This document shows, in pieces, positions 9,888 through 35,512 of a stretch of 64,000 nucleotides of DNA. A program made the position numbers and the translations under genes. A model generated the notes under the pieces. It saw only the letters and a program-made list of their open reading frames with translations. It did no database searches and was not told the DNA's origin. Within the stretch, counting starts at the first letter, position 1. Every line of letters starts with the position of its first letter. Origin of the DNA: Octopus vulgaris (taxonomy: Eukaryota); NCBI GenBank assembly GCA_951406725.2, contig OX597814.1, positions 70,432,001 to 70,496,000 of the forward strand, in the 5' to 3' direction.

Positions 9888-9975
<88 letters not shown>

Positions 9976-10311
9976 ATACAATATGTTACATTACTCGGTA
10001 GTCAAGATAAAACTCTGAGTTTCAGATGCCGAAGTGGAAATCCACAACACCATCTCTTCGGTTATCTGGCTATTTGAAAACGTTATGGAAAAATACCGTT
10101 AAAAATGAAGGGAAATTACTCTGTTATAACTCTGCTTTGCCTGCGTACTTATACATCGCTCGCATTTTTCGTCATAAAAATTATATAAAAATACATAAAA
10201 ATATATAAAAATATATAAAAATATATAAAATCTTCTTGGGACATAACACAGAAAGCATGTTCTATCCGTTTTCTTTAGGGGACCAAAAACGTAACAGAAA
10301 TTTAGTCACAT

Positions 10312-10881
10312 GTGGGCATTAGTTTTAGTTCAACTACCAATTTTAAAAACATAATCAATCATAACATACAAAAAACACAAGAAGAAAACAGCTGTTCATG
10401 CAGGAATAAAGAATTGTGCCCGCTAAATGGAGCTTGCATGTCCAAGACCATCATATATGAAGCTACCGTAAACTCTATAACCACTAAAGACACCGTTTCG
10501 ACGAAGAAATACGTGGGCCTGACAGAGGGTAATTTCAAATACGTGGGCCTGACAGAGGGTAATTTCAAGGCCAGGTTCAATAACCACACTTTGAGCTTTA
10601 GGCACTGGAACAAAAGAAAAGCGACACAATTATCCAGTCATATTTGGTCTTTAAGAGATAAAGGTGTCGATTATAACATACAATGGAAGATTTTGGCCAG
10701 ATGTAAGCCCTATACTAACGGCAGCGGAAGGTGCGGTTTATGCGACATGGAGAGATGGCTTATCTGGAAAAGCAGCTTAGACCCTACCACATGTCTAAAT
10801 ACAAGGACAGAGCTTTTCGGATCATGCCCACATGTGACTAAATTTCTGTTACGTTTTTGGTCCCCTAAAGAAAACGGATAG
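10312..10881 (+). pseudogene. PLE GIY-YIG endonuclease fragment (Naiad-like Cys pattern)
   Basis: CSCRNKELCPLNGAC, IIYEA, KYVGLTE..FKARFNNH, CGLCDME, GSCPH. Confidence 0.85.
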
Positions 10882-11075
10882 AACATGCTTTCTGTGTTAT
10901 GTCCCAAGAAGATTTTATATATTTTTATATATTTTTATATATTTTTATGTATTTTTATATAATTTTTATGACGAAAAATGCGAGCGATGTATAAGTACGC
11001 AGGCAAAGCAGAGTTATAACAGAGTAATTTCCCTTCATTTTTAACGGTATTTTTTCATAACGTTTTCAAATAGCC

Positions 11076-11138
11076 AGATAACCGAAGAGATGGTGCTGTG
11101 GATTTCCACTTCGGCATCTGAAACTCAGAGTTTTATCT
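11076..11138 (+). ncRNA. Hammerhead motif, CCGAAGA core (mirror copy 10005-10067, minus strand)
   Basis: agataa CCGAAGA gatg...catct GAAA ctc-a-gag TT ttatct. Confidence 0.7.
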
Positions 11139-11232
11139 TGACTACCGAGTGATGTAACATATTGTATAGATAAATTTCCTCTATTTACATAATATTGAGG
11201 TCTCTTTCTTTCTTTTGTTATCTTACCGTTTT

Positions 11233-11326
<94 letters not shown>

Positions 11327-11464
11327 TTGAGTTGTGGGGTATCGCACGAGTGGGATTATATAAGAAAAAAGGTTTGAAAATGCAATTTAAACGATGTTTA
11401 TTTACTTAACCGGTTTCACTCTTTGGTAAAAGATTGTCAAAAGTTACATTTAAGGAAACATTGA

Positions 11465-11690
11465 ATAATATGGGTTCAAAAAAAGTTTTTTACATAATTG
11501 TCACATTGAATATTATGCATTCAAAAAAGTTTTTTTACATAATTGTCACATTGGATATTATGGGTTCAAAAAAAGTTTTTTACATAATTGTCACATTGAA
11601 TATTATGCATTCAAAAAAGTTTTTTACATAATTGTCACATTGGATATTATGAATTCAAAAATGTTTTTTTATACATAATTGTCACATTAC
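11465..11690. repeat. 36-37-bp minisatellite, about 6 units (mirror at ~14450-14675)
   Basis: Unit ataattgtcacattgRatattatgSRttcaaaaaagtttttt(t)ac repeated. Confidence 0.9.
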
Positions 11691-12322
11691 ATGTATAAAT
11701 ATAGTGTTTGGTAACAGAGAAGTTCAATAGTATGATGAGAATATTTGGGAAAATTTGGCAGAAAAGGATAAAACAAATATATTATTGGGAATTGGTTGCG
11801 TTAATTATTGGTTGTCGCAAATTGTCACATTACATGTATATATATACAATCTTTGGTATATATATACAGCGTTTTGACAGCAAAAATTAAAATGGATTTT
11901 TTGTACATCTCAGAATATTTTAAGTATGTTTTTACTGACCTGTCAGTATTAGCAGAAAGGCTGAACTGAGAGAACAGAAGAAGTAGCCAATGTGGTGTAT
12001 ACTTCCCCTTTATGCATGAATGATTTTGGGGTTATCAGGAGGTTAGTATGCGGGTGTGAATAGATGTGTCCTTGCCTGCTGGTCAGACAGCGTCTGTTTG
12101 TCACACACATATATATACACACAAACACACACACACACAACAACACACACACACACACACACATAGTATACAAACACACACCACATACAAACAACACACA
12201 CACACACAGAACACACACACCCACACACAACGCACCCACATATATCACATATACACACAGCACACAAATATAACATGTATCTATATATAACATACACAGA
12301 TATATAACACACATACACACAC

Positions 12323-12361
<39 letters not shown>

Positions 12362-13181
12362 CACACGCACACATACATACATAATATAAATATCACACAA
12401 ATACACCTAGCATATATATACACACATACAATACACACATACAGCATGTAAGTAATATACATACACAATATATGCATGCAATATACATACGCAATACATA
12501 CATATAATATATATATATATATAGACAATGCATATACATATATACACATATACATATAAATAGTGTTTACATACACATACATAGATGTACCACATATACA
12601 CACAACACACATACATACAATGCATACACATACACGTACGCATACATATAATATATATATACACGCACACACACATAACATACATACACACACAATGCAT
12701 ACATATATATACACGCAATGCATATACATGTATTGATGCACATATAGGACACCTACAATATACATATATACAGTGCACACATACACACAAATATATACAC
12801 TTAATTGTACACGTACATATACAATACACATACATACAATATACATATACACAATGCGCATGCAAATAATGTACATGTTTATACACACATAAACATGCAA
12901 ATAAATATACACACACACACATACACACACACACATATATATACACATATATATATATATATACACACATACATACATACATACATGCACATACATATAT
13001 TTTTTCACACACATACACACACATATATCTATATAAAAAATTCACCACCCCCCACACACACAAATTACAAACCTATAGCGTACACACTCAAATATATCTC
13101 TACATATTTTATATATATATGTGTGTGTGTATGTGTGTGAAAAAATATATGTATGTGCATGTATGTATGTATGTATGTGTG

Positions 13182-13212
<31 letters not shown>

Positions 13213-13767
13213 GTGTGTGTGTGTATGTGTGTGTGTGTATATTTATTTGCATGTTTATGTGTGTATAAACATGTACATTATTTGCATGCGCATTGTGTAT
13301 ATGTATATTGTATGTATGTGTATTGTATATGTACGTGTACAATTAAGTGTATATATTTGTGTGTATGTGTGCACTGTATATATGTATATTGTAGGTGTGC
13401 TATATGTGCATGAATACATGTATATGCATTGCGTGTATATATATGTATGCATTGTGTGTGTATGTATGTTATGTGTGTGTGTGTGTGTATATATATTATA
13501 TGTATGCGTACGTGTATGTGTATGCATTGTATGTATGTGTGTTGTGTGTATATGTGGTACATCTATGTATGTGTATGTAAACACTATTTATATGTATATG
13601 TGTATATATGTATATGCATTGTCTATATATATATATATTATATGTATGTATTGCGTATGTATATTGCATGCATATATTGTGTATGTATATTACTTACATG
13701 CTGTATGTGTGTATTGTATGTGTGTATATATATGCTAGGTGTATTTGTGTGATATTTATATTATGTA

Positions 13768-13823
<56 letters not shown>

Positions 13824-14695
13824 TGTTGTGTGTGTATGTGTGTTATATATCTGTGTATGTTATATATAGATACATGTTATATTTGTGTGCTGTGTGTATA
13901 TGTGATATATGTGGGTGCGTTGTGTGTGGGTGTGTGTGTTCTGTGTGTGTGTGTGTTGTTTGTATGTGGTGTGTGTTTGTATACTATGTGTGTGTGTGTG
14001 TGTGTGTTGTTGTGTGTTTGTGTGTATATATATGTGTGTGACAAACAGACGCTGTCTGACCAGCAGGCAAGGACACATCTATTCACACCCGCATACTAAC
14101 CTCCTGATAACCCCAAAATCATTCATGCATAAAGGGGAAGTATACACCACATTGGCTACTTCTTCTGTTCTCTCAGTTCAGCCTTTCTGCTAATACTGAC
14201 AGGTCAGTAAAAACATACTTAAAATATTCTGAGATGTACAAAAAATCCATTTTAATTTTTGCTGTCAAAACGCTGTATATATATACCAAAGATTGTATAT
14301 ATATACATGTAATGTGACAATTTGCGACAACCAATAATTAACGCAACCAATTCCCAATAATATATTTGTTTTATCCTTTTCTGCCAAATTTTCCCAAATA
14401 TTCTCATCATACTATTGAACTTCTCTGTTACCAAACACTATATTTATACATGTAATGTGACAATTATGTATAAAAAAACATTTTTGAATTCATAATATCC
14501 AATGTGACAATTATGTAAAAAACTTTTTTGAATGCATAATATTCAATGTGACAATTATGTAAAAAACTTTTTTTGAACCCATAATATCCAATGTGACAAT
14601 TATGTAAAAAACTTTTTTGAATGCATAATATTCAATGTGACAATTATGTAAAAAACTTTTTTGAACCCATATTATTCAATGTTTCCTTAAATGTA

Positions 14696-20962: not shown

Positions 20963-22168
20963 CAGAAGCTGGTCCTGGAGCGTGATGGCATTGCTGGGAT
21001 CTTTGGCACTATGCAGTGTCATTACGTTCTAGCATTAGTGTAGCTTACAATGCCAAAATTTGGCACAATTCCTTCCAGGATCTTCCAGACATATATCACT
21101 GCATACCTCTCCCGTTTTCTCTCCAGGGAGTAGAGTCTTAGCTGTTTCAACCTTTCCCAGTAGCTGAGCTGTTGCAAAGAGATGATCTTCTTTGTGAATC
21201 CTCTCTGGATTGCTTCAAGGTCCACTGTTAATTTTACACTTGTAGGTGACCATAGCTGTGAGCAGTAATCCAGGCGACTGAGGACGAATGTCCGCCAGAG
21301 GACCATCATGGTTTCCTTATCTCTGCTTCTGAATGTTCTTAGGATCCACCCAGCCAGTCGTCTGCACTTTGCCGCCATCCTGGTAATGTGCACTTGGAAA
21401 GAAGTATCATCACTGATGTCGATACCCAGGTCCCTCACAGACTTAGGCTCTGGGATTGAAATTCCCTGTGGACCGGTGTATCCTGTAAGTTTAATATTCA
21501 GTTTTGGATGCTGGTAGCGCTGGGCCTGGAATTTTTCAGCATTAAACTGCATATTATTATCCTCAGCCCATCTGTAGATTGAGTCCAACTCCTGCTGCAG
21601 GTGTGCAACCACGCTGGGGTTCTGTATTTTCTGCGAGACTTTCGTATCGTCTGAATACCTGGCCAGAGTGACTATCCGGGCATTTGAGGGCATATCTGAG
21701 AGGGCCACTATAAAAAGCAGTGGTCCCAAGACAGTGCCCTGTGGAACACCACTCACTATTTGTGTGTTCATAGAGGTGGCTCCATTAACCACTACTGCCT
21801 GACTCCTATCTTTCAGGAAGTCATGCAACCACACTCCAAGTTTTCCAGCTATGCCGAGGTCACGTAGTTTGTGGCATATCATACCATGATCCACCTTGTC
21901 GAAAGCTTTTGCAAAATCAAGGTAGATTACGTCCACATTTGATTTGTTGAGCAACTGCCTCAACACCCTGTCATAATGCTGTAAGAGCTGGGTCAGGCAG
22001 CTCCTACCTTGTCGAAAACCATGCTGGGTATCATTCAGCAAGTTATTTTCCTCAAGGAATGCGATAAGTTTCTTTCTGACTATCCGTTCCATGACTTTGC
22101 TGATGTGTGAAGTAAGAGAGATAAGCCTATAGCTTTTGGCATCTGCTCTACTTCCCCCTTTATGTATT
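20958..22168 (-). mobile_element. CR1-group LINE RT fragment (family B)
   Basis: 356-aa ORF 21022-22092 with [31 protein letters not shown]; closely similar to 53722-54540. Confidence 0.9.
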
Positions 22169-22169
22169 G

Positions 22170-22295
<126 letters not shown>

Positions 22296-22606
22296 AAAAT
22301 AGTAAAGTGTGAAAAAACGACAGAAGGCTTAAATGTTAAAAAATATATATATTTGTGTCAAAATGTCTGGAGAATATCGGAAAAATTTTTTTTCCTTTCC
22401 TTAAAATGACATAATTTAAAAAAATTTTTAAAGAAATTACCGGTTTCGCGTGTAGCTTTTCAAATTTCTTGTGACGTTATGTTTATATTGCATGGAATTA
22501 TCATTGTTTTTATTTCCAGGAGATTTCTAAATAAGGGGAGGTAGTGAGTGATTTTTTCCGGTGTAGGGGAGATAATCGCTTAAAAATTTTTTTTCCTTTT
22601 TCCTTG

Positions 22607-24727
22607 TTAATTTCTCTGTGTCAGTATGTTCGGATGGTTGAGTCTGGGTTTGTACTTTTCAATGAAGAATGTTTCCTTGTTCAGTCTCATTTGTGTTGAT
22701 GATCCGAAAGCACATTGGTAAAATGGGAAGATTAAAAATTGTGGCAGTATTTGCTTTGCGCATTTCTCAATGTGCTCACTAAAAGGTATCATTCTATATT
22801 CTGGGAATGCAATCTGTTGTCGATGCAGTGTGCATCTGCGCCTGAGTGATAGTCCCGTGGAACCCACGTAGTCTTGGTGGCAGCCCGAGCATTTAATAAC
22901 ATAAATTATGTTTTCAGAGGCACAAGTAAAGTTAGATTTGATCTTAAATTTCTGTCCCTCTTTAAAGAAGAATTCTGATCCTTCCAATTGGTTAGGACAT
23001 GTTGCACAGTTCGATCTACCACATTTTTTTACTTTTGTATCCGTAATTTTAGAAGACAATTTTGCCTTTGTGAGAATCTTTTTAAGTGATTTAGGCTGTT
23101 TGTAGCTTTTAATGATTTGGTGTATGTTTAGAATTTCCTTTAATTTTGGGTTTTTATGAAGTATTGGTAAATTCTGGGTGATGATGGTGAAGGCTTCTTT
23201 GTTTCTGGGGTTGTATGTAGATATGTAAGGTAGTATTTTCGGGGAAGGTGTGTTGTTGTGTTGAACTTTTCTTAAAGTTTCTATGTTGATTTCTGTTGCA
23301 CGTCTGATCCCATCCTCTATGAGTTGAGCTGGGTAATGTCTGTCAATTAGGGTGTTTTTGAGTTCTTGCAGTCTAAAGTTCCTGGTATTTTGTTCTGACA
23401 CTATTGTGCATATCCTTCTTGCAAGGTTGAAGGGGATGTTTGTTTTAGTGTGTCTTGGGTGGCATGAATTAAAAAGAAGGTATTGTTTGGCGTCTGTGGC
23501 TTTGTAAAAAATGTCTGTTTCTATTTTAAGGTTAATTTTTTTAATTAGTATATCCAAGAACGGGAGCTCTTTTTGGTTGTATTCCATTGTGAACTGTATA
23601 TTTGGGTTTATGCTGTTCAATAGGTTTTTAAATTTTAGGAGTTTATCTATGTTTTCATTCCAGAAAATGAAACAATCGTCTAGGAATCGTTTCCAATTCT
23701 CTTTTATGTATTGAGAGAGGGAGTTTCCAAAGATTGATAGAGATTCCTGGTAAATGATTATTTCCATGTATCCCATTGTTAAGTTCGCAATGACTGGTGC
23801 TGCCCTTGTACCCATAGCAATTCCGGATTTTTGACGGTAAAATGTATTGTCAAACATGAAGTGGTTATTGTGTAGGATGAATTCAATTGATTTAGTAATG
23901 AATTCCTTACTGATCCTTTTTGGTATTTCTTCCGGAAATTGGTCTAACCAGAATTGTATTGCCTCCAGTCCATAATTATGAGGTATACTGGTATACAAGT
24001 TGACTACATCAAATGAAACCAGGATTGTTTCTTCCTTGGTTTTTTTTGGGAGGTAGTTTAACATATCTAAGTCATCTCTGATATGGCTATCGATATGTTT
24101 AAGGAAGGGTTTCAAGAGGATGTCCATAAGTAGACTTAGTCTGTGTGTTTCACAGGTTGGGCCAGCTACAATGGGTCGTAGTTTTAGGTCCCCCGGATTA
24201 GGTGTGTGTATGTATGTCTTTGGTGATTTTTTAATGGTTTCATTTATAATTTGACTTTTATGAATTTTTGGCAGACCATAGAAAAGGCTAGGTTTGCATT
24301 TAAAGTTTGTTAGGAAATCAATCTCTTTGGTTGTCAGTTCCTTTTCATGGGTTTTAATTAGTGAAGATAGAGTTTTCATTATTTTTTGTGGGGTGTAGTT
24401 GGTAATTTTTTCATAATGTAGGTCTTCATCAAGCAAGGAAATTACAAGATTTCTGTAGTATGATGTATCCATTATTACAACTGCATTTCCCTTGTCCGCT
24501 TCCTTAATGGTTATATCTTCATCATTTTGGAGTTCTATCAGTTCTTTCCATTGTGTAGTGTTGAAATTTGGGTTAGCTTTCTGTTTATGTATAGTATGGT
24601 AGGGGAAGTTCTCAATGTGGTTACAGAATTCGTCAAGATCTTTATTTCTTCCTCTGTGTGGGATGTGTTCACTTTTGTTCTTGACTAGTGATTCATCTTC
24701 AGTATTGAAACTGTTTGATGCTTCTGC
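22607..24727 (-). CDS. PLE reverse transcriptase + GIY-YIG endonuclease (open frame, 5'-truncated)
   Basis: IKEADKGN, FYGLPKIHK, RPIVA, SFDVVNLYTSIP, GIAMGT, RFLDDCF, CGRSNCATC, IIYVIKC..C..DYVGST. Confidence 0.9.
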   Translation of the reverse strand, partial: AEASNSFNTEDESLVKNKSEHIPHRGRNKDLDEFCNHIENFPYHTIHKQKANPNFNTTQWKELIELQNDEDITIKEADKGNAVVIMDTSYYRNLVISLLDEDLHYEKITNYTPQKIMKTLSSLIKTHEKELTTKEIDFLTNFKCKPSLFYGLPKIHKSQIINETIKKSPKTYIHTPNPGDLKLRPIVAGPTCETHRLSLLMDILLKPFLKHIDSHIRDDLDMLNYLPKKTKEETILVSFDVVNLYTSIPHNYGLEAIQFWLDQFPEEIPKRISKEFITKSIEFILHNNHFMFDNTFYRQKSGIAMGTRAAPVIANLTMGYMEIIIYQESLSIFGNSLSQYIKENWKRFLDDCFIFWNENIDKLLKFKNLLNSINPNIQFTMEYNQKELPFLDILIKKINLKIETDIFYKATDAKQYLLFNSCHPRHTKTNIPFNLARRICTIVSEQNTRNFRLQELKNTLIDRHYPAQLIEDGIRRATEINIETLRKVQHNNTPSPKILPYISTYNPRNKEAFTIITQNLPILHKNPKLKEILNIHQIIKSYKQPKSLKKILTKAKLSSKITDTKVKKCGRSNCATCPNQLEGSEFFFKEGQKFKIKSNFTCASENIIYVIKCSGCHQDYVGSTGLSLRRRCTLHRQQIAFPEYRMIPFSEHIEKCAKQILPQFLIFPFYQCAFGSSTQMRLNKETFFIEKYKPRLNHPNILTQRN

Positions 24728-25800
24728 TAAAAAAATTAACCTTAAAATAGAAACAGACATTTTTTACAAAGCCACAGACGCCAAACAATACCTTCTTTTT
24801 AATTCATGCCACCCAAGACACACTAAAACAAACATCCCCTTCAACCTTGCAAGAAGGATATGCACAATAGTGTCAGAACAAAATACCAGGAACTTTAGAC
24901 TGCAAGAACTCAAAAACACCCTAATTGACAGACATTACCCAGCTCAACTCATAGAGGATGGGATCAGACGTGCAACAGAAATCAACATAGAAACTTTAAG
25001 AAAAGTTCAACACAACAACACACCTTCCCCGAAAATACTACCTTACATATCTACATACAACCCCAGAAACAAAGAAGCCTTCACCATCATCACCCAGAAT
25101 TTACCAATACTTCATAAAAACTCAAAATTAAAGGAAATTCTAAACATACACCAAATCATTAAAAGCTACAAACAGCCTAAATCACTTAAAAAGATTCTCA
25201 CAAAGGCAAAATTGTCTTCTAAAATTACGGATACAAAAGTAAAAAAATGTGGTAGATCGAACTGTGCAACATGTCCTAACCTATTGGAAGGATCAGAATT
25301 CTTCTTTAAAGAGGGACAGAAATTTAAGATCAAATCTAACTTTACTTGTGCCTCTGAAAACATAATTTATGTTATTAAATGCTCGGGCTGCCACCAATAC
25401 TACGTGGGTTCCACGGGACTATCACTCAGGCGCAGATGCACACTGCATCGACAACAGATTGCATTCCCAGAATATAGAATGATACCTTTTAGTGAGCACA
25501 TTGAGAAATGCGCAAAGCAAATACTGCCACAATTTTTAATCTTCCCATTTTACCAATGTGCTTTCGGATCATCAACACAAATGAGACTGAACAAGGAAAC
25601 ATTCTTCATTGAAAAGTACAAACCCGGACTCAACCATCCGAACATACTGACACAGAGAAATTAACAAGGAAAAAGGAAAAAAAATTTTTAAGCGATTATC
25701 TCCCCTACACCGGAAAAAATCACTCACTACCTCCCCTTATTTAGAAATCTCCTGGAAATAAAAACAACGATAATTCCATGCAATATAAACATAACGTCAC

Positions 25801-25840
25801 AAGAAATTTGAAAAGCTACACGCGAAACCGGTAATTTCTT
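25801..25840 (+). ncRNA. Minimal hammerhead with U3-A8 core (mirror 22431-22470, minus strand)
   Basis: aagaaat TTGAAAA gc-tacac-gc GAAA ccgg TA atttctt; perfect 7-bp stem I. Confidence 0.8.
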
Positions 25841-26019
25841 TAAAAATTTTTTTAAATTATGTCATTTTAAGGAAAGGAAAAAAAATTTTTCCGATATTCT
25901 CCAGACATTTTGACACAAATATATATATTTTTTAACATTTAAGCCTTCTGTCGTTTTTTCACACTTTACTATTTTCTTATATATTCACCCACGTGCTTTA
26001 CCAAACAAACTTTCTTATC

Positions 26020-26057
<38 letters not shown>

Positions 26058-26287
26058 CATATATATATACCTATATATATTATGTATATATGTATATATA
26101 TATATATATGCATATATATATCATATACATATTACATATATACATATATATGTACATATATACATACATATATATATATATACACATATATATACACATA
26201 TATATATAGATATATATATATACATATATATACATATATATATACATATATATATACATATATATATATACATATACATATATATAC

Positions 26288-26576: not shown

Positions 26577-29714
<3,138 letters not shown>

Positions 29715-29741
29715 GTATATATATGTATATATATATATATG

Positions 29742-30346
29742 TAATAGAAATATTAAAATAACTAAGTCTCTCTAAAAGAGAACAGCGGCAGCGTTCCCGG
29801 AAAATAATAGTTATCGCCATACTAATATGGCATTCTTATAAAAATAAGAAAAAAGCTGTCCGCTTATTAGCTCCATGAGGCCATCGCCTTAAGTTAGCTA
29901 TTTGATACACAAACTTTATCCATATAACCTTCGAACAAGGGAGGTCAGTCGCTCCACACTACTTGACCGGCAGCTACATACGCGTTTCGGGGTATTGCCC
30001 CTTTTCAATGCAGCGTAGCCAGCCAGTAGGTGCCGCTTCCGACAATCTCTGTTCGATGGTTTTATTTACCTAGTTTCGGTGGAATACATCCACTTGTTTT
30101 CAATAATAGAAATATTAAAATAACTAAGTCTCTCTAAAAGAGAACAGCGGCAGCGTTCCCGGAAAATAATAGTTATCGCCATACTAATATGGCATTCTTA
30201 TAAAAATAACCTTGTTCGAAGGTTATATGGATACAGTTTGTGTATCAAATAGCTAACATAAGGCGATGGCCTCATGAAGCTAATAAGCGGACAGCTTTTT
30301 TCTTATTTTTATAAGAATGCCATATTAGTATGGCGATAACTATTAT
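29742..30346 (-). mobile_element. Retrozyme-like non-coding element: 1.3 head-to-tail units of 362 nt plus inverted arm
   Basis: Direct repeat 29742-29847 / 30104-30209; 30210-30346 is the inverse of 29804-29940. Confidence 0.8.
29973..30014 (-). ncRNA. Hammerhead with U3-A8 core
   Basis: gctgca TTGAAAA gggg-caata-cccc GAAA cgcg TA tgtagc. Confidence 0.85.
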
Positions 30347-30469
30347 ATATATGTATATATATATGTATATATATATATGTATATATATATATGTATATAT
30401 ATGTATATATACAATGGCGGTGCCCCAGCATGGCCACAGCTCAAGAGCTGAAACTGGAAAACATAGACA

Positions 30470-31896
30470 TAAACAATAAAATACCACTTTTGCTTAACCT
30501 CTGCAACCACACACTTTCCACCTTTGTCGCTCCAAAGATTTGGCACCAATCTCAAATCATTCCAATACCCAAAAAAGGCGATTTGTCCCTCGTCACCAAC
30601 TACAGGGGCATATCTCTAATGTCAATTGCTGCAAAACTGTACAACAAACTGATCCTAAATCGTCTTGTCCTTTTGTTGAACCTTTGCTCCGAAAGAACCA
30701 AAATAGATTCAGACATGGGCGCTCAACGCTGAGCCAGATACTATGCCTGCGCAGACTTATTGAAGAATCAAAAGCATTTAATCGCGATCTTGCAATGGTA
30801 TTTGTAGACTTTTCTAAAGCGTTCGATTCTGTAGATAGGTGCAAGATGTTTGAAATCCTTAAGCTCTATGGGATACCAAACAAAATTATTTCTGCCATCA
30901 AGGTCCGCTACACAGATACGTCTTCAACCATCTTAACCCCTGATGGAGAAACATCATCTTTCTCGATCGAGGCCGGAATACTGCAGGGAGACACACTCGC
31001 CCCATTTCTTTTCATCATTGTTGTTGATTATGTGCTACGTATGTCAGTTGATACCATCTCTGGCAAGGGCTTTGAAATAAAACCAAGAAGAAGTTCCAGA
31101 CACCCAGCTGAGTACTTGACAGACACTGACTTTGCTGACGACATCGCTCTTATCAGTGATTCTCTCTCCAATGCCCAGTCTCTTTTACAATCTCTTGAAC
31201 AAGCCTCAAATTGTGTAGGTCTTTACCTCAATGAGACCAAAACTGAATACATAAACAAGTGCCTGTCCAACAGTGATTGCATCCATCCACACTCTCAACA
31301 GTGCACCTTTAAATATGGTTTCTGATTATAAATATCTTGGGTCATACATATCATCATCTGGAAAAGACTTTCTAACTAGAAAGGGTATGGCCTGGTCAGC
31401 CTGTAATGACATGCATAAGATCTGGTCATCAAATCTAAGTAGAGACTTCAAACTTGAAATATTCAAAGCCACAGTCGAACCAATCCTACTATATGGCTCA
31501 GAAACCTGGACGTTATCAAAGAAGCTTGAGAGGCGGTTGGATGGAACCTACACTCGCCTCCTTATGAGAGCTCAAAATCTCTCGTGGAGGCGCCATCCAA
31601 CTAAAATGCAAATATATGGGAAATTACCACCTGTGTCATCTCTTGTGAAAGGTAGGAGAGTCCAGTTTGCTGGACATTGTTGTAGAGCTGAAAAAGAAGT
31701 AATTTCTACTCTTCTCCTCTGGAAGCCATCTACTCGCAACACCAGAGGGCGCACACTCTCCTACCCTGATGTAATCTCCAGGGATACAGGCATCCAGCAA
31801 CAGGACCTCCGTAATGCTATGATGGACCGTGAAGTCTGGCGCAACATGGTAAATTCCATTGTCTCGACCACGGTCGAACAATGATGATGATGATGA
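30470..31896 (+). mobile_element. RTE-clade LINE, 5'-truncated, with (TGA)n tail
   Basis: NYRGISLMSIAAK, VDFSKAFDSV, GILQGDTLAPFLF, DFADDIAL, LLYGSETWTL; ends tgatgatgatgat. Confidence 0.9.
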
Positions 31897-31936
31897 TATG
31901 TATATCTATATATCTATATATATATGTGTATATATA

Positions 31937-31968
<32 letters not shown>

Positions 31969-31988
31969 CATATATATACATATATATA

Positions 31989-32034
<46 letters not shown>

Positions 32035-32061
32035 TACATATATATATACATATATATATAT

Positions 32062-33815
32062 ATTTCAGCAATCCTGATATGACTGATCTGGGCTGTATCA
32101 GTGATGTTACTCCCCAATACACTTTATCGGACATAACCTTTGGCGCTCCTGATGTCTTAGCAGCAATAAAGGAAATGAAGCATAATTCAGCAGTAGGTCC
32201 CGATAGGTTCCCTGCTTGTGTCTTGAAGATGTGTCAAAACCAACTTGCACCCCCTCTAGCCAATCTGTGGCGGAACTCACTGGATGCTGGATATATACCA
32301 GAAGACCTTCTATCCCAGTCTGTTGTCCCAGTTTTCAAAAAAGGAAACAAATCGCTTGCCGTGAATTACCGTCCAATCTCACTCATCTCTCATATCATTA
32401 AGGTATTTGAGAGAGTGCTGAGATCGCGTATGACTCACTTCCTTGAGAGTCATAATATGCTGAACTCCAACCAGCATGGATTCCGTAATGGGAGAGATTG
32501 CCTGACGCAGCTACTGCATCATTTTGATGACATTTTGAGAGCCTTGGGAGAGGGTTCCAACACTGATGTCATCTACCTTGATTTCAGCAAGGCCTTTGAC
32601 AGGGTTGATCATAAGATCCTTCTGAGAAAGCTGTCCAATATTGGTGTCACTGGAAAGCTGCTGCAGTGGATCAAGTGCTTCCTGTCTAACAGAACCCAAC
32701 ATGTTGTAGTTGAAGGAGTCAAATCCAGCCCAGCCAAAGTCAGCAGTGGTGTCCCACAAGGCACTGTGTTGGGCCCACTTCTCTTCACCATCTACATAAA
32801 TGATATTATTGACACCATCAAACACAGTAACATCAGAACCTTCGCTGATGATTCCAAGCTCCAGAAGGTCATCAATGGCGTGGATGACTGAATAAGCCTT
32901 CAGTCAGACCTACTGGCTGTTGTCCAATGGGCGGAAAAGAATAACATGTTGCTAAACGAAGACAAAATCGAACTGATCCACTTTGGAAGGGAGGACGCTC
33001 TGAAACTCCCATACTCTCTTCCTTCTGGAGAAATTCTCATGGCATCCAACAACATCAGAGACTTGGAAGTAACAGTGGACAACAACATAAGCTGGGCTAC
33101 ACATATAAGCAGCAAAGTTGACATGGCCCGCAGAATATGTTCCTGGATTCTCAGAACCTTCCAGTCGAGAGATTCCCACACTATTATCCTTCTCTTCTCC
33201 ACTTTTGCCCGACCCCACCTTGAATACTGCTGTCCACTGTGGTCTCCCTACACAAAACAAAATATTATGAGAATTGAAGCTCCCCAAAGGTCAATCACAA
33301 AAAAGATAGATGGCATGTCAGACCTTGACTACTGGGGTAGACTAGAGAAGCTGAAACTGTATTCACTCCAACGACGCCGTGAACGCTACATTATCTGTAT
33401 GATGTGGAAAATATTCCATCAGCACTGTCCGAATGATGTTGGCATCACCTTCAAAATACATCCAAGTTTTGGACCACGTGCCATCCGTCCACAACAAAAA
33501 TCTAAATCGCATCACATAACGACAATACGGCACAACTTTTTCACCTCAATTGGACCCGCTCTCTTCAACATTACACCAGGACACGTCAAAAAAGAAACTG
33601 ACCACACAAAATTAAAGAAGTCTTTGGACAAATTCCTTCAAACAGTCTCGGACAAACCACCCACACCCGGATATGTCTCCGCAAACAATAACTCTCTGCT
33701 CGAATGGGCCTCGGTGCCCAAATCCTGAATTGAAAGACTTCGCCAGGTGGTGCTATTAAGTTAGACATGGCCTGGGCCAATATTGGCCAAAACCTTTCTA
33801 AGTTATTCTAAGTTA
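32062..33815 (+). mobile_element. CR1-group LINE (family C), 5'-truncated with intact 3' end
   Basis: [40 protein letters not shown]; ends in tandem ttctaagtta. Confidence 0.9.
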
Positions 33816-33830
33816 TACATATATACATAG

Positions 33831-33910
<80 letters not shown>

Positions 33911-33959
33911 ATATATACATATATATATACATATATACATATACATATATATATATATG

Positions 33960-34010
<51 letters not shown>

Positions 34011-34207
34011 ATATATGTATGTATACATATATATATATATGTATGTATATATATATATGTATATATATATATATGTATGTATATATATATATGTATGTAT
34101 GTATATATATATATATGTATGTATGTATATATATATGTATGTATATATATATATATGTATGTATATATATATATATATGTATATATATATGTATGTATAT
34201 ATATATG

Positions 34208-34268
<61 letters not shown>

Positions 34269-34295
34269 GTATGTATATATATATATGTATGTATA

Positions 34296-34374
<79 letters not shown>

Positions 34375-34376
34375 TG

Positions 34377-34783
34377 TAATAATAGTTATCGCCAAACTAA
34401 TACGGCAGTCCATAAATATAAGACTAAAGCTGTCGCTGATTAGCTCCAAGAGGCCATCGCCTCTATCTAGCTATATGACACACGAACCTGCGTCCATTAC
34501 AACCTTCGAACAGGGGAGGTCAGCCGCTTCACCTTGCTAGTCAGACATCTGCAGACATGTTTCAGGGATGTTGCCCTTTATCAATGCAACGTAGTCAGAC
34601 CCAGCAGGTGTCGCTAGCGACCGTCCATTCGAAGATTTTATTTACCTAATTTCAGTGGAATACATCCACTTGTTTTCAATAATAGAAATATTAAAATTAT
34701 TAAGTCTCTCTAAAGGAGATTACGGCAGCGTTACTGGATATTAATATTAGTTTGCCGATAAATATTAATATCCAGTAACGCTG
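34377..34783 (-). mobile_element. Second, diverged copy of the retrozyme-like unit with short fold-back
   Basis: Colinear with 29804-30168; 34746-34783 is an inverted arm spanning the unit junction. Confidence 0.8.
34549..34589 (-). ncRNA. Hammerhead with U3-A8 core
   Basis: ttgca TTGATAA aggg-caacat-ccct GAAA catg TC tgcag. Confidence 0.85.
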
Positions 34784-35081
34784 GATATATATATGCATAT
34801 ATATATATATATATGTATATATATACGTATATATATGTATATATATACATATATATGTATGTATATATACATACACACATATATTTATACATATATATAT
34901 ATACATATATATATATGTATATATATATACATAAATATATATACATATATATATACATATATATATATGTATATATATATATACATAAATATATATACAT
35001 ATATATATACATATACATATATACATATATATATATATACATATACATATATATATACGTATACATATATATATATACATG

Positions 35082-35139
<58 letters not shown>

Positions 35140-35455
35140 CACATATATATATGTATATATATAGACATATATATATATACTTATATATATATATGCATAT
35201 ATATATATGCATATATATATATATATATATATATACATACATATATATACATATATATATATATACATATATATATACATATATATATACATATATATAT
35301 ATACATATATATATATACATATATATATATACATATATATACATATATATATACATATCTATATATACATATATATATATACCTATATATATATATATAT
35401 ATATACATATATATATACATATATATATAGACATATATACATACATATATATATC

Positions 35456-35512
<57 letters not shown>

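Follow-up and report, generated by a model that had tools for sequence, protein, structure and literature searches.

The window analysed here, a 64,000-nt stretch of AT-rich Octopus vulgaris DNA (contig OX597814.1, positions 70,432,001 to 70,496,000), carries at 34377-34783 a small insertion composed of two inverted arms and set between (TA)n tracts that represent its target (33814-34376 on the left, 34784-35509 on the right). The long arm (34377-34746, RNA sense on the minus strand) comprises one 362-nt unit of subfamily B (34377-34738; subfamilies are described below) plus 8 nt of the next unit. Its outer end at 34377 corresponds to the first of two start sites used across the family and bears no tail. 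A terminal hairpin of the form GCCR-N8-UGGC lies 14 nt before this site 1 (34391-34406, minus strand), and the ~60-nt tail segment (34679-34738, minus strand) extends from start site 2 (34679, unit position 303) to site 1. The short arm (34745-34783, plus strand) is 39 nt long and overlaps the long arm by a 2-nt microhomology at 34745-34746. As the preliminary description of this DNA had read it, this arm passes from the end of the unit straight into its start (positions 350-362, then 1-26; outwards from the joint, 26 to 1, then 362 to 350). Its outer end, unit position 350, is atypical and matches neither start site.

The terminal part of the long arm forms, together with the inverted arm, a perfect DNA palindrome of 23 bp with a 12-nt loop (34726-34783; z -8.3), which a substitution at 34762 in the short arm lengthens by 2 bp. 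Besides, the short arm carries the minority allele of the long arm at unit position 19, and, judging from one base, it may have been partly copied from the long arm. Among the assembled contigs of the sequencing runs, none spanned the inversion joint of this copy. The unit has a GC content of 42% and is non-coding (longest ATG frame, 30 aa); the frames of the window included no RT plus GIY-YIG reading frame within the retrozyme unit, so that it is not an autonomous Penelope-like element (PLE). Rfam returned nothing at gathering score in the window, and no hammerhead model was among its 117 weak matches in 29500-35000.

When both strands of the window were scanned for hammerheads, only two matches emerged, one in the unit described above and one in a neighbouring unit, both on the minus strand. 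The former is a type I hammerhead with a U3-A8 core (34549-34589), made up of helix I (34589-34585 with 34553-34549), the core UUGAUAA (34584-34578), helix II (34577-34564), GAA (34563-34561), the palindromic helix III ACAUGU (34560-34555) and C17 (34554). It thus reads UUGAUAA / AGGG-CAACAU-CCCU / GAA / ACAUGU / C, where the neighbour has UUGAAAA / GGGG-CAAUA-CCCC / GAA / ACGCGU / A. All sequence features listed in the preliminary description were recovered by scan and alignment, including the ribozyme changes that keep pairing (gggg/cccc to aggg/ccct, cgcg to catg) and the core change from UUGAAAA to UUGAUAA. The copy follows the core consensus Y3-U-G-A-N-R8-A, GAAA, NUH with the 3-8 pair kept (UUGAUAA / GAAA / GUC). 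Applied to the scan, the established hammerhead consensus, which fixes the position of cleavage, predicts self-cleavage and circle closure between 34554 and 34553 on the minus strand (unit position 177/178). Helix I can be extended to 34535-34606 (minus strand), with compensatory changes at alignment columns 17-86 (GC/AU) and 27-77 (AU/GC). The U3-A8 core is a published hammerhead variant (PMC4209133), and both C3-G8 and U3-A8 cores occur within one related octopus family (L165 versus L176-L178).

The neighbour is a separate insertion at 29742-30346. Its long arm (29742-30209, minus strand) belongs to the young subfamily A and consists of a tail (29742-29803), a unit (29804-30165) and 44 further nucleotides; its inverted arm (30210-30346, plus strand) ends at site 1, hence only one end of this insertion has a tail. 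Across 34378-34746 and 29803-30171 the two copies are 80.7% identical (alignment within the 64-kb window). The copy at 34377 had been taken for a diverged sister of this neighbour; it is rather a typical representative of a different subfamily, sharing 94-96% identity with its 39 best relatives. Likewise, the proposed change of the cleavage triplet from GUA to GUC holds as far as the letters go, but GUA (at 29979, within the neighbour's hammerhead at 29973-30014, minus strand) is private to the neighbour: GUC is found in 52 of 53 subfamily A ribozymes, GUA in 1 of 53, and the C allele was shown by all four sequencing runs examined. Two broken LINE-type RT copies, (TA)n-bounded and on the plus strand, lie between the two retrozyme insertions (30412-31884 and 32064-33729); by their motifs we take them to be RTE-like and CR1/L2-like.

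To size the family, we searched the genome (2.8 Gb, 227 contigs). The ribozyme motif had 2,044 exact matches against 15 for the reversed control and is therefore not due to chance; a unit-start pattern had 4,084 matches against none, and a first look for the two window units had given 2,869 and 1,212 candidates. Clustering of 121 full units, which came from 82 of the 134 loci, separated subfamily A (74 units, mean pairwise distance 1.4%), subfamily B/C (36 units, 3.7%) and an older group D (about 8%), with distances of 15.7% between A and B, about 15% between B and D and 21% between A and D. Units also stand in tandem, with up to 12 unit starts in one arm. The copy at 34377 differs from 35 other B units by 11 substitutions and, as a single locus, is ordinary and slightly decayed. 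It belongs to a new, dispersed, non-coding non-LTR retrozyme family of thousands of copies, itself of a known kind; in the open-access literature we found no paper on this family or on the paired use of the two start sites. Summed contig depth had hinted at a commoner element sharing the tail, which was ruled out by 3,284 tail matches versus 4,084 unit-start matches. As a side observation, the word share of subfamily A was 0.62-0.84 in sequencing runs under eight organism labels, which may reflect recent activity in related species or mixed labels.

A second hammerhead-like motif lies at 34643-34679 on the minus strand (UUGAAAA, hairpin GUGGA/UCCAC, GAAA..GUA) and also at 30068-30103 of the window; it abuts start site 2. 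It is near-intact in subfamily A; its hairpin is conserved, and its core is broken in most B/C units and in all listed D units. We rejected it as an active ribozyme on account of the broken core and of a predicted cut that fits neither end site. It is probably non-catalytic and, given its resemblance to the minimal hammerhead of PLEs, may be a relic; a pattern for a PLE carrying this motif returned six matches, all of them ordinary retrozyme copies.

For 164 arms in simple insertions, at loci picked by similarity or by an intact ribozyme, 71 started at unit positions 1-12, 75 at 295-315 and 18 elsewhere, so that mapping the insertion end points, as the preliminary description had proposed, placed 146 of 164 arms at two fixed sites. 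On contig C1, 54 loci within the first 65 Mb match the unit-start pattern; a ribozyme-blind survey of 53 of them comprised 33 simple inverted insertions, 16 single arms and four complex loci. Where both ends of an inverted insertion were defined, 27 of 28 had one end at each site (P 2e-7), although two of these 27 (L214, L216) look like duplicates of each other; in the similarity-chosen set this held for 40 of 44. The tail is found at one end only and measures 60-63 nt; of 61 insertions, 28 have it on the short arm and 24 on the long one. It had been noted as a caveat that the four 3' ends then observed clustered within ~60 nt rather than being randomly permuted, and this turned out to be the most informative feature, equal to the two-site, one-tail signature of Penelope elements. 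The flanks were TA-rich on at least one side in 79 of 92 insertions, and 9-12-nt direct repeats (target duplications of more than 4 bp) accompanied 8 of 13 insertions that lacked TA flanks. No LTR-internal-LTR layout was seen in the mapped loci. Local duplication of whole inverted insertions, with identical arm lengths, was observed at L214/L216 and L232.

These end points alter the meaning of the crossing between unit positions 362 and 1, which had been described as a monomer junction. Other copies do contain it, as 115 of 164 arms cross it. However, 362/1 is the inner edge of a Penelope-type tail: arms from the second site cross it after ~60 nt by construction, and crossing it therefore says nothing on circularity. 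The junction of the predicted circle lies 177 nt inside the unit (between 34554 and 34553), and a monomer cut by its ribozyme would carry 362/1 in its interior.

The resemblance to PLEs extends to their biochemistry. A PLE protein studied in vitro introduces nicks into either strand of AT-rich DNA and begins reverse transcription at two positions within the RNA, which delimit the tail (Frangieh 2024, PMC11167929). Since the insertions share the Penelope end pattern, the retrozyme likely borrows a PLE enzyme, and we hold it very probable that it is mobilised in this way. The terminal hairpin likely serves as the recognition signal of that enzyme: its GCCA/UGGC pattern has 17,063 overlapping matches genome-wide against 330 for the control and is common to several distant ribozyme-bearing retrozyme families of this genome. 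Taken as a whole, the insertion at 34377 is probably a copy of a retrozyme with 362-nt tandem units and a predicted type I hammerhead, likely inserted into (TA)n by a PLE and likely derived from a circular monomer; for the RNA circle as template, considered by itself, the balance tilts in favour.

We propose the following course of events. Arrays of two or more units would be transcribed, adjacent hammerheads would pair through their palindromic helix III and cut out monomers, and these would be ligated into circles as in coral, mussel and axolotl retrozymes. The RT/GIY-YIG protein of a PLE would then nick both strands of an AT-rich target, and cDNA synthesis would begin at two fixed internal sites ~60 nt apart; of this step, the two sites and the TA preference are observed. 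The length of each cDNA would vary at random, many running through the cleavage site and beyond one unit, as seen in the arms themselves. Finally, the cDNAs would join at a short microhomology; the anatomy of an inverted insertion with a one-ended tail is observed, whereas the joining chemistry is presumed. The alternative outcome would be a single arm.

Several observations bear on the template. In the survey, 36 arms reached position 160, of which one stopped at 165-190, around the cleavage site, and 32 passed; 19 of 75 arms were longer than one unit, with scattered inner ends. Arms that continue beyond the cleavage site and beyond one unit exclude a cleaved linear monomer as template; arms that run through the cleavage site for up to 12 units imply a template that is circular or an uncleaved multimer. 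The earlier proposal of a circular or multimeric template hence survives on these grounds, but not on the argument from junction crossing, which is void. Unit-length loops in assembled run contigs were set aside as evidence for circles, as tandem DNA fits them equally well.

The same element and enzyme could also use a linear multimer that is transcribed from an array in the genome and left uncleaved, with ribozyme cleavage and circles as side products. We regard this as rather unlikely. In its favour, a start inside the RNA requires no processed end, the genome offers arrays of up to 12 units for transcription, and the passing of the cleavage site fits it equally well. Moreover, a PLE tested in vitro could do without ribozyme cleavage, in that its hammerhead mutants inserted normally and it mainly used unprocessed RNA as template (PMC11167929); the weak helix III of the retrozyme predicts slow cleavage (PMC4209133), and eight of nine frog retrozyme dimers did not cleave in vitro (bioRxiv 10.64898/2026.07.22.740005). 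Against it stands the homogeneity of units within one insertion. For lineage variants, every covering unit carried the variant in 56 cases in A and 44 in B, only some did so in 4 and 5, respectively, and 7 (A) and 3 (B) insertion-private variants were common to all units. This homogeneity calls for a monomer-to-multimer step somewhere, and the conservation of the ribozyme across subfamilies 15-21% apart indicates that cleavage matters.

Returning to the circle as template, we tentatively suggest that one ribozyme-made circle might be primed twice by a dimeric Penelope enzyme, once per nicked strand of a (TA)n target, itself a palindrome, and 60 nt apart, with both cDNAs rolling round the same circle until they meet by microhomology. 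Sharing of non-majority variants between opposite arms of one insertion affected 0.33% of sites in A and 0.90% in B, compared with 0.05% and 0.19% between insertions, and only four insertion-private variants spanned both arms; this fits one template lineage without proving one molecule. We found nothing on the idea of twin priming on one RNA in the open-access literature. If true, a single step would yield tandem units as well as inverted arms with a tail on one side, and the account would extend from retrozymes to PLEs.

Inverted arms could instead arise when one cDNA folds back on itself, with no second priming on RNA. Self-priming of this kind has been proposed for rotifer PLEs (PMC3846280), junction overlaps of at least 2 nt were found in 39 of 66 insertions against a null of 17% (indicative only, as BLAST overlaps were compared with exact matches), and the short arm was contained in the long arm in 42 of 61. 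In the remaining 19 of 61 insertions, however, neither arm contains the other, which excludes fold-back as a general rule. Nor does it agree with a tail on the short arm about as often as on the long arm, and it gives no account of the near-constant use of the other site at the second end. As an overall explanation we deem it improbable, yet it may apply to the copy at 34377 alone, whose substitution at 34762 extends the palindrome and whose outer end is atypical. In another insertion (L042/L043; G000:C12:31688174-31689693), short template jumps from unit position 54 to 317 occur twice before the inversion and suggest RT slippage near the two start sites.

Candidate donors of the enzyme are present in the genome. 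The search for GIY-YIG gave 6,136 candidates, 148 of which were listed, and the matches listed include near-identical 781-aa RT+GIY-YIG frames between direct terminal repeats, i.e. young PLEs. Their ends carry a U3-A8/ACAUGU minimal hammerhead, and they lie in (TA)n, 19 without a tail and seven with one of about 34 nt; in two inverted PLE copies (L096, L102) a single end is tailed. In the two PLE families examined, tail length is about 30-35 nt rather than 60. One of these, the young autonomous PLE of L091-L101 (e.g. L091:1430-6672), combines the 781-aa frame with terminal repeats 99-100% identical and a tail of about 34 nt; a further frame upstream, at most 479 aa long, matched nothing in Pfam. 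In a second PLE group (L102, L106, L064, L088), the helix III motif is of the AGUACU type and the tail measures about 30 nt; L102 is an inverted PLE insertion with 100% identical arms.

A search by sequence for the autonomous partner, covering nine GIY-YIG groups from the 148 listed candidates, gave no convincing alignment, and none was found among hairpin-selected loci. One alignment score above shuffles fell inside a TA-rich stretch and was discarded, and the PLE fragments seen in L317, L326 and L337 were adjacent but separate elements. The units might also be viewed as truncated terminal repeats (pLTRs) of a yet-unfound autonomous PLE, in keeping with hammerheads and the same ends in PLE pLTRs (PMC8557442 for the hammerheads) and with the derivation of frog retrozymes from pLTRs (bioRxiv 10.64898/2026.07.22.740005); we consider this very unlikely, because in the mapped loci long arms run into further units and not into coding sequence, no frame of the unit exceeds 30 aa, and 12 extra tail- or motif-bearing loci were all ordinary retrozyme copies.

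Related retrozymes have radiated in this genome (L165, L176-L178, L305, L308, L310, L317, L324-L326, L329, L334, L338, L339; further loci are L162, L167, L175 and L179). Their palindromic helix III takes the forms ACCGGU, ACUCGAGU, ACCUAGGU, ACUGCAGU and ACUAGU, with both core variants; the terminal hairpin is common to them, and several families have inverted arms and a tail of about 50 nt. On the twin-priming reading, this radiation, whose families have the hairpin in common but not the sequence of the partner, would serve as a natural mutagenesis screen of recognition by the enzyme.

As to the RNA itself, the preliminary description had concluded from two copies that its structure is under selection. 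The comparison of these two copies alone is weak, as the CGCG/CATG change in helix III equals two CpG transitions, the helix II change is a single pair and GUA is private; the claim of covariation thus rests on the larger alignment. Genome-wide, helix III takes four palindromic states across subfamilies (CGCG, CAUG, CUAG, CCGG). In 100 listed matches with a YR centre, 87 were CUAG, six CCGG and seven non-palindromic, and in the first 100 with any centre two were non-palindromic. Of 65 ribozyme regions found, we aligned 43 whose flanks are intact and observed pairing to be kept in 95.6% of 1,028 cells, compared with 26-47% in slid controls. The core and the edge columns of helix III are fixed by the search pattern, and their invariance is therefore not evidence. 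The covariation that had been anticipated in a larger alignment was present: 7 of 24 pairs changed on both sides, a count also reached by 77 of 500 shuffles, which ignore relatedness.

A cross-test, in which the structure predicted from one subfamily alone was scored on another against random placement, is partly free of these two limits and agreed. From A to B, 6 pairs were lost versus 17.8 expected (P=0.0002), and from B to A 9 versus 17.7 (P=0.0004), with 4 versus 0.9 and 6 versus 1.1 double changes, respectively; the compensatory changes include hairpins far outside the ribozyme. Tests between A and D agreed with those between A and B, and three of four measures from B to D were not significant. 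Folded as circles, real A, B and C units gave z of -7 to -10 on the ribozyme strand, stronger than on the other strand, compared with -3.8 for the copy at 34377 and -2.7 for one D unit, which folds better on the opposite strand. At the level of single copies, changes at paired columns broke pairing more often than they kept it (31 versus 23), and selection is hence to be placed on the subfamily master lineages and not on the 34377 copy. Selection on RNA structure in these lineages is supported by the CUAG and CCGG states and by compensations elsewhere in the unit.

That the family is a satellite or MITE-like repeat spread as DNA, its covariation being CpG decay plus shared ancestry, is scarcely credible: CGCG/CATG and CCCCG/CCCTG are indeed CpG transitions and the shuffles are uncorrected for relatedness, but the transversion states of helix III, compensations far from CpG sites together with the between-subfamily test, C3-G8 and U3-A8 cores in one related family, and arms of unequal length with random inner ends all speak against it.

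The octopus family closely resembles the non-LTR retrozymes of coral, mussel and axolotl (Cervera and de la Pena 2020, PMC7229834). In both, non-coding tandem units of 150-450 nt with a GC content below 50% each carry one type I hammerhead, with a palindromic helix III as in the amphibian motifs; both have highly folded predicted circles, target duplications of more than 4 bp and coexisting PLEs. The octopus family differs in its U3-A8 core within a full-size ribozyme and in its insertions, which are mostly dispersed inverted pairs in (TA)n bearing a 60-nt tail on one side; neither "inverted" nor "microsatellite" appears as a word in the main text of that paper. Circles and cleavage were demonstrated for the coral, mussel and axolotl elements (PMC7229834), whereas in the octopus family both are predicted. 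Vertebrate retrozymes are similar in unit size and in their monomer-to-multimer copies, and have been proposed to be non-autonomous derivatives of PLEs (Li, Clavereau and Pollet, bioRxiv 10.64898/2026.07.22.740005). The link between retrozymes and PLEs is thus already in print (PMC7229834; bioRxiv 10.64898/2026.07.22.740005); in vertebrates it builds on co-occurrence and pLTR homology, in octopus on insertion anatomy, no pLTR homology having been found in the nine GIY-YIG groups compared.

Features described for EN+ PLEs (Craig 2021, PMC8557442; Arkhipova 2013, PMC3846280) likewise recur in the octopus retrozyme: partial tandems, an inverted 5'-truncated copy and an often one-ended tail, as well as a microsatellite bias, 8-10-bp duplications, two internal RT starts and a near-end hammerhead (also PMC11167929). 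In contrast to these elements, the retrozyme has no RT or endonuclease frame, its repeat is the whole element, and its tail measures 60-63 nt instead of the published 30-40. The minimal hammerheads of the Schistosoma PLE Cercyon (PMC4209133) show the same U3-A8 core covariation and predicted activity as dimers, whereas the retrozyme has a long helix I, a 4-bp helix II and a ribozyme of canonical size; the Cercyon-type minimal form is found in the autonomous PLEs of the octopus genome.

Thousands of young insertions here carry the PLE end signature directly, in numbers fit for statistics. One tail per inverted insertion, unbroken passage of the ribozyme site and arm-shared variants constrain the unsolved mechanism of PLE integration, and the insertion ends make enzyme borrowing unusually testable, including the question whether a circle without a free end is the template.

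Two further groups of repeats were observed along the way. An abundant repeat of ~120 nt between (TA)n tracts, with a GCCA..TGGC end, occurs at L294, L298, L301 and L304, where no hammerhead was seen, and in inverted form at L313. Besides, the window contains additional inverted-arm repeats with (TA)n flanks at 9888-11322, 11458-14682 and 22161-26131, some of which may be PLE-type insertions or MITEs.
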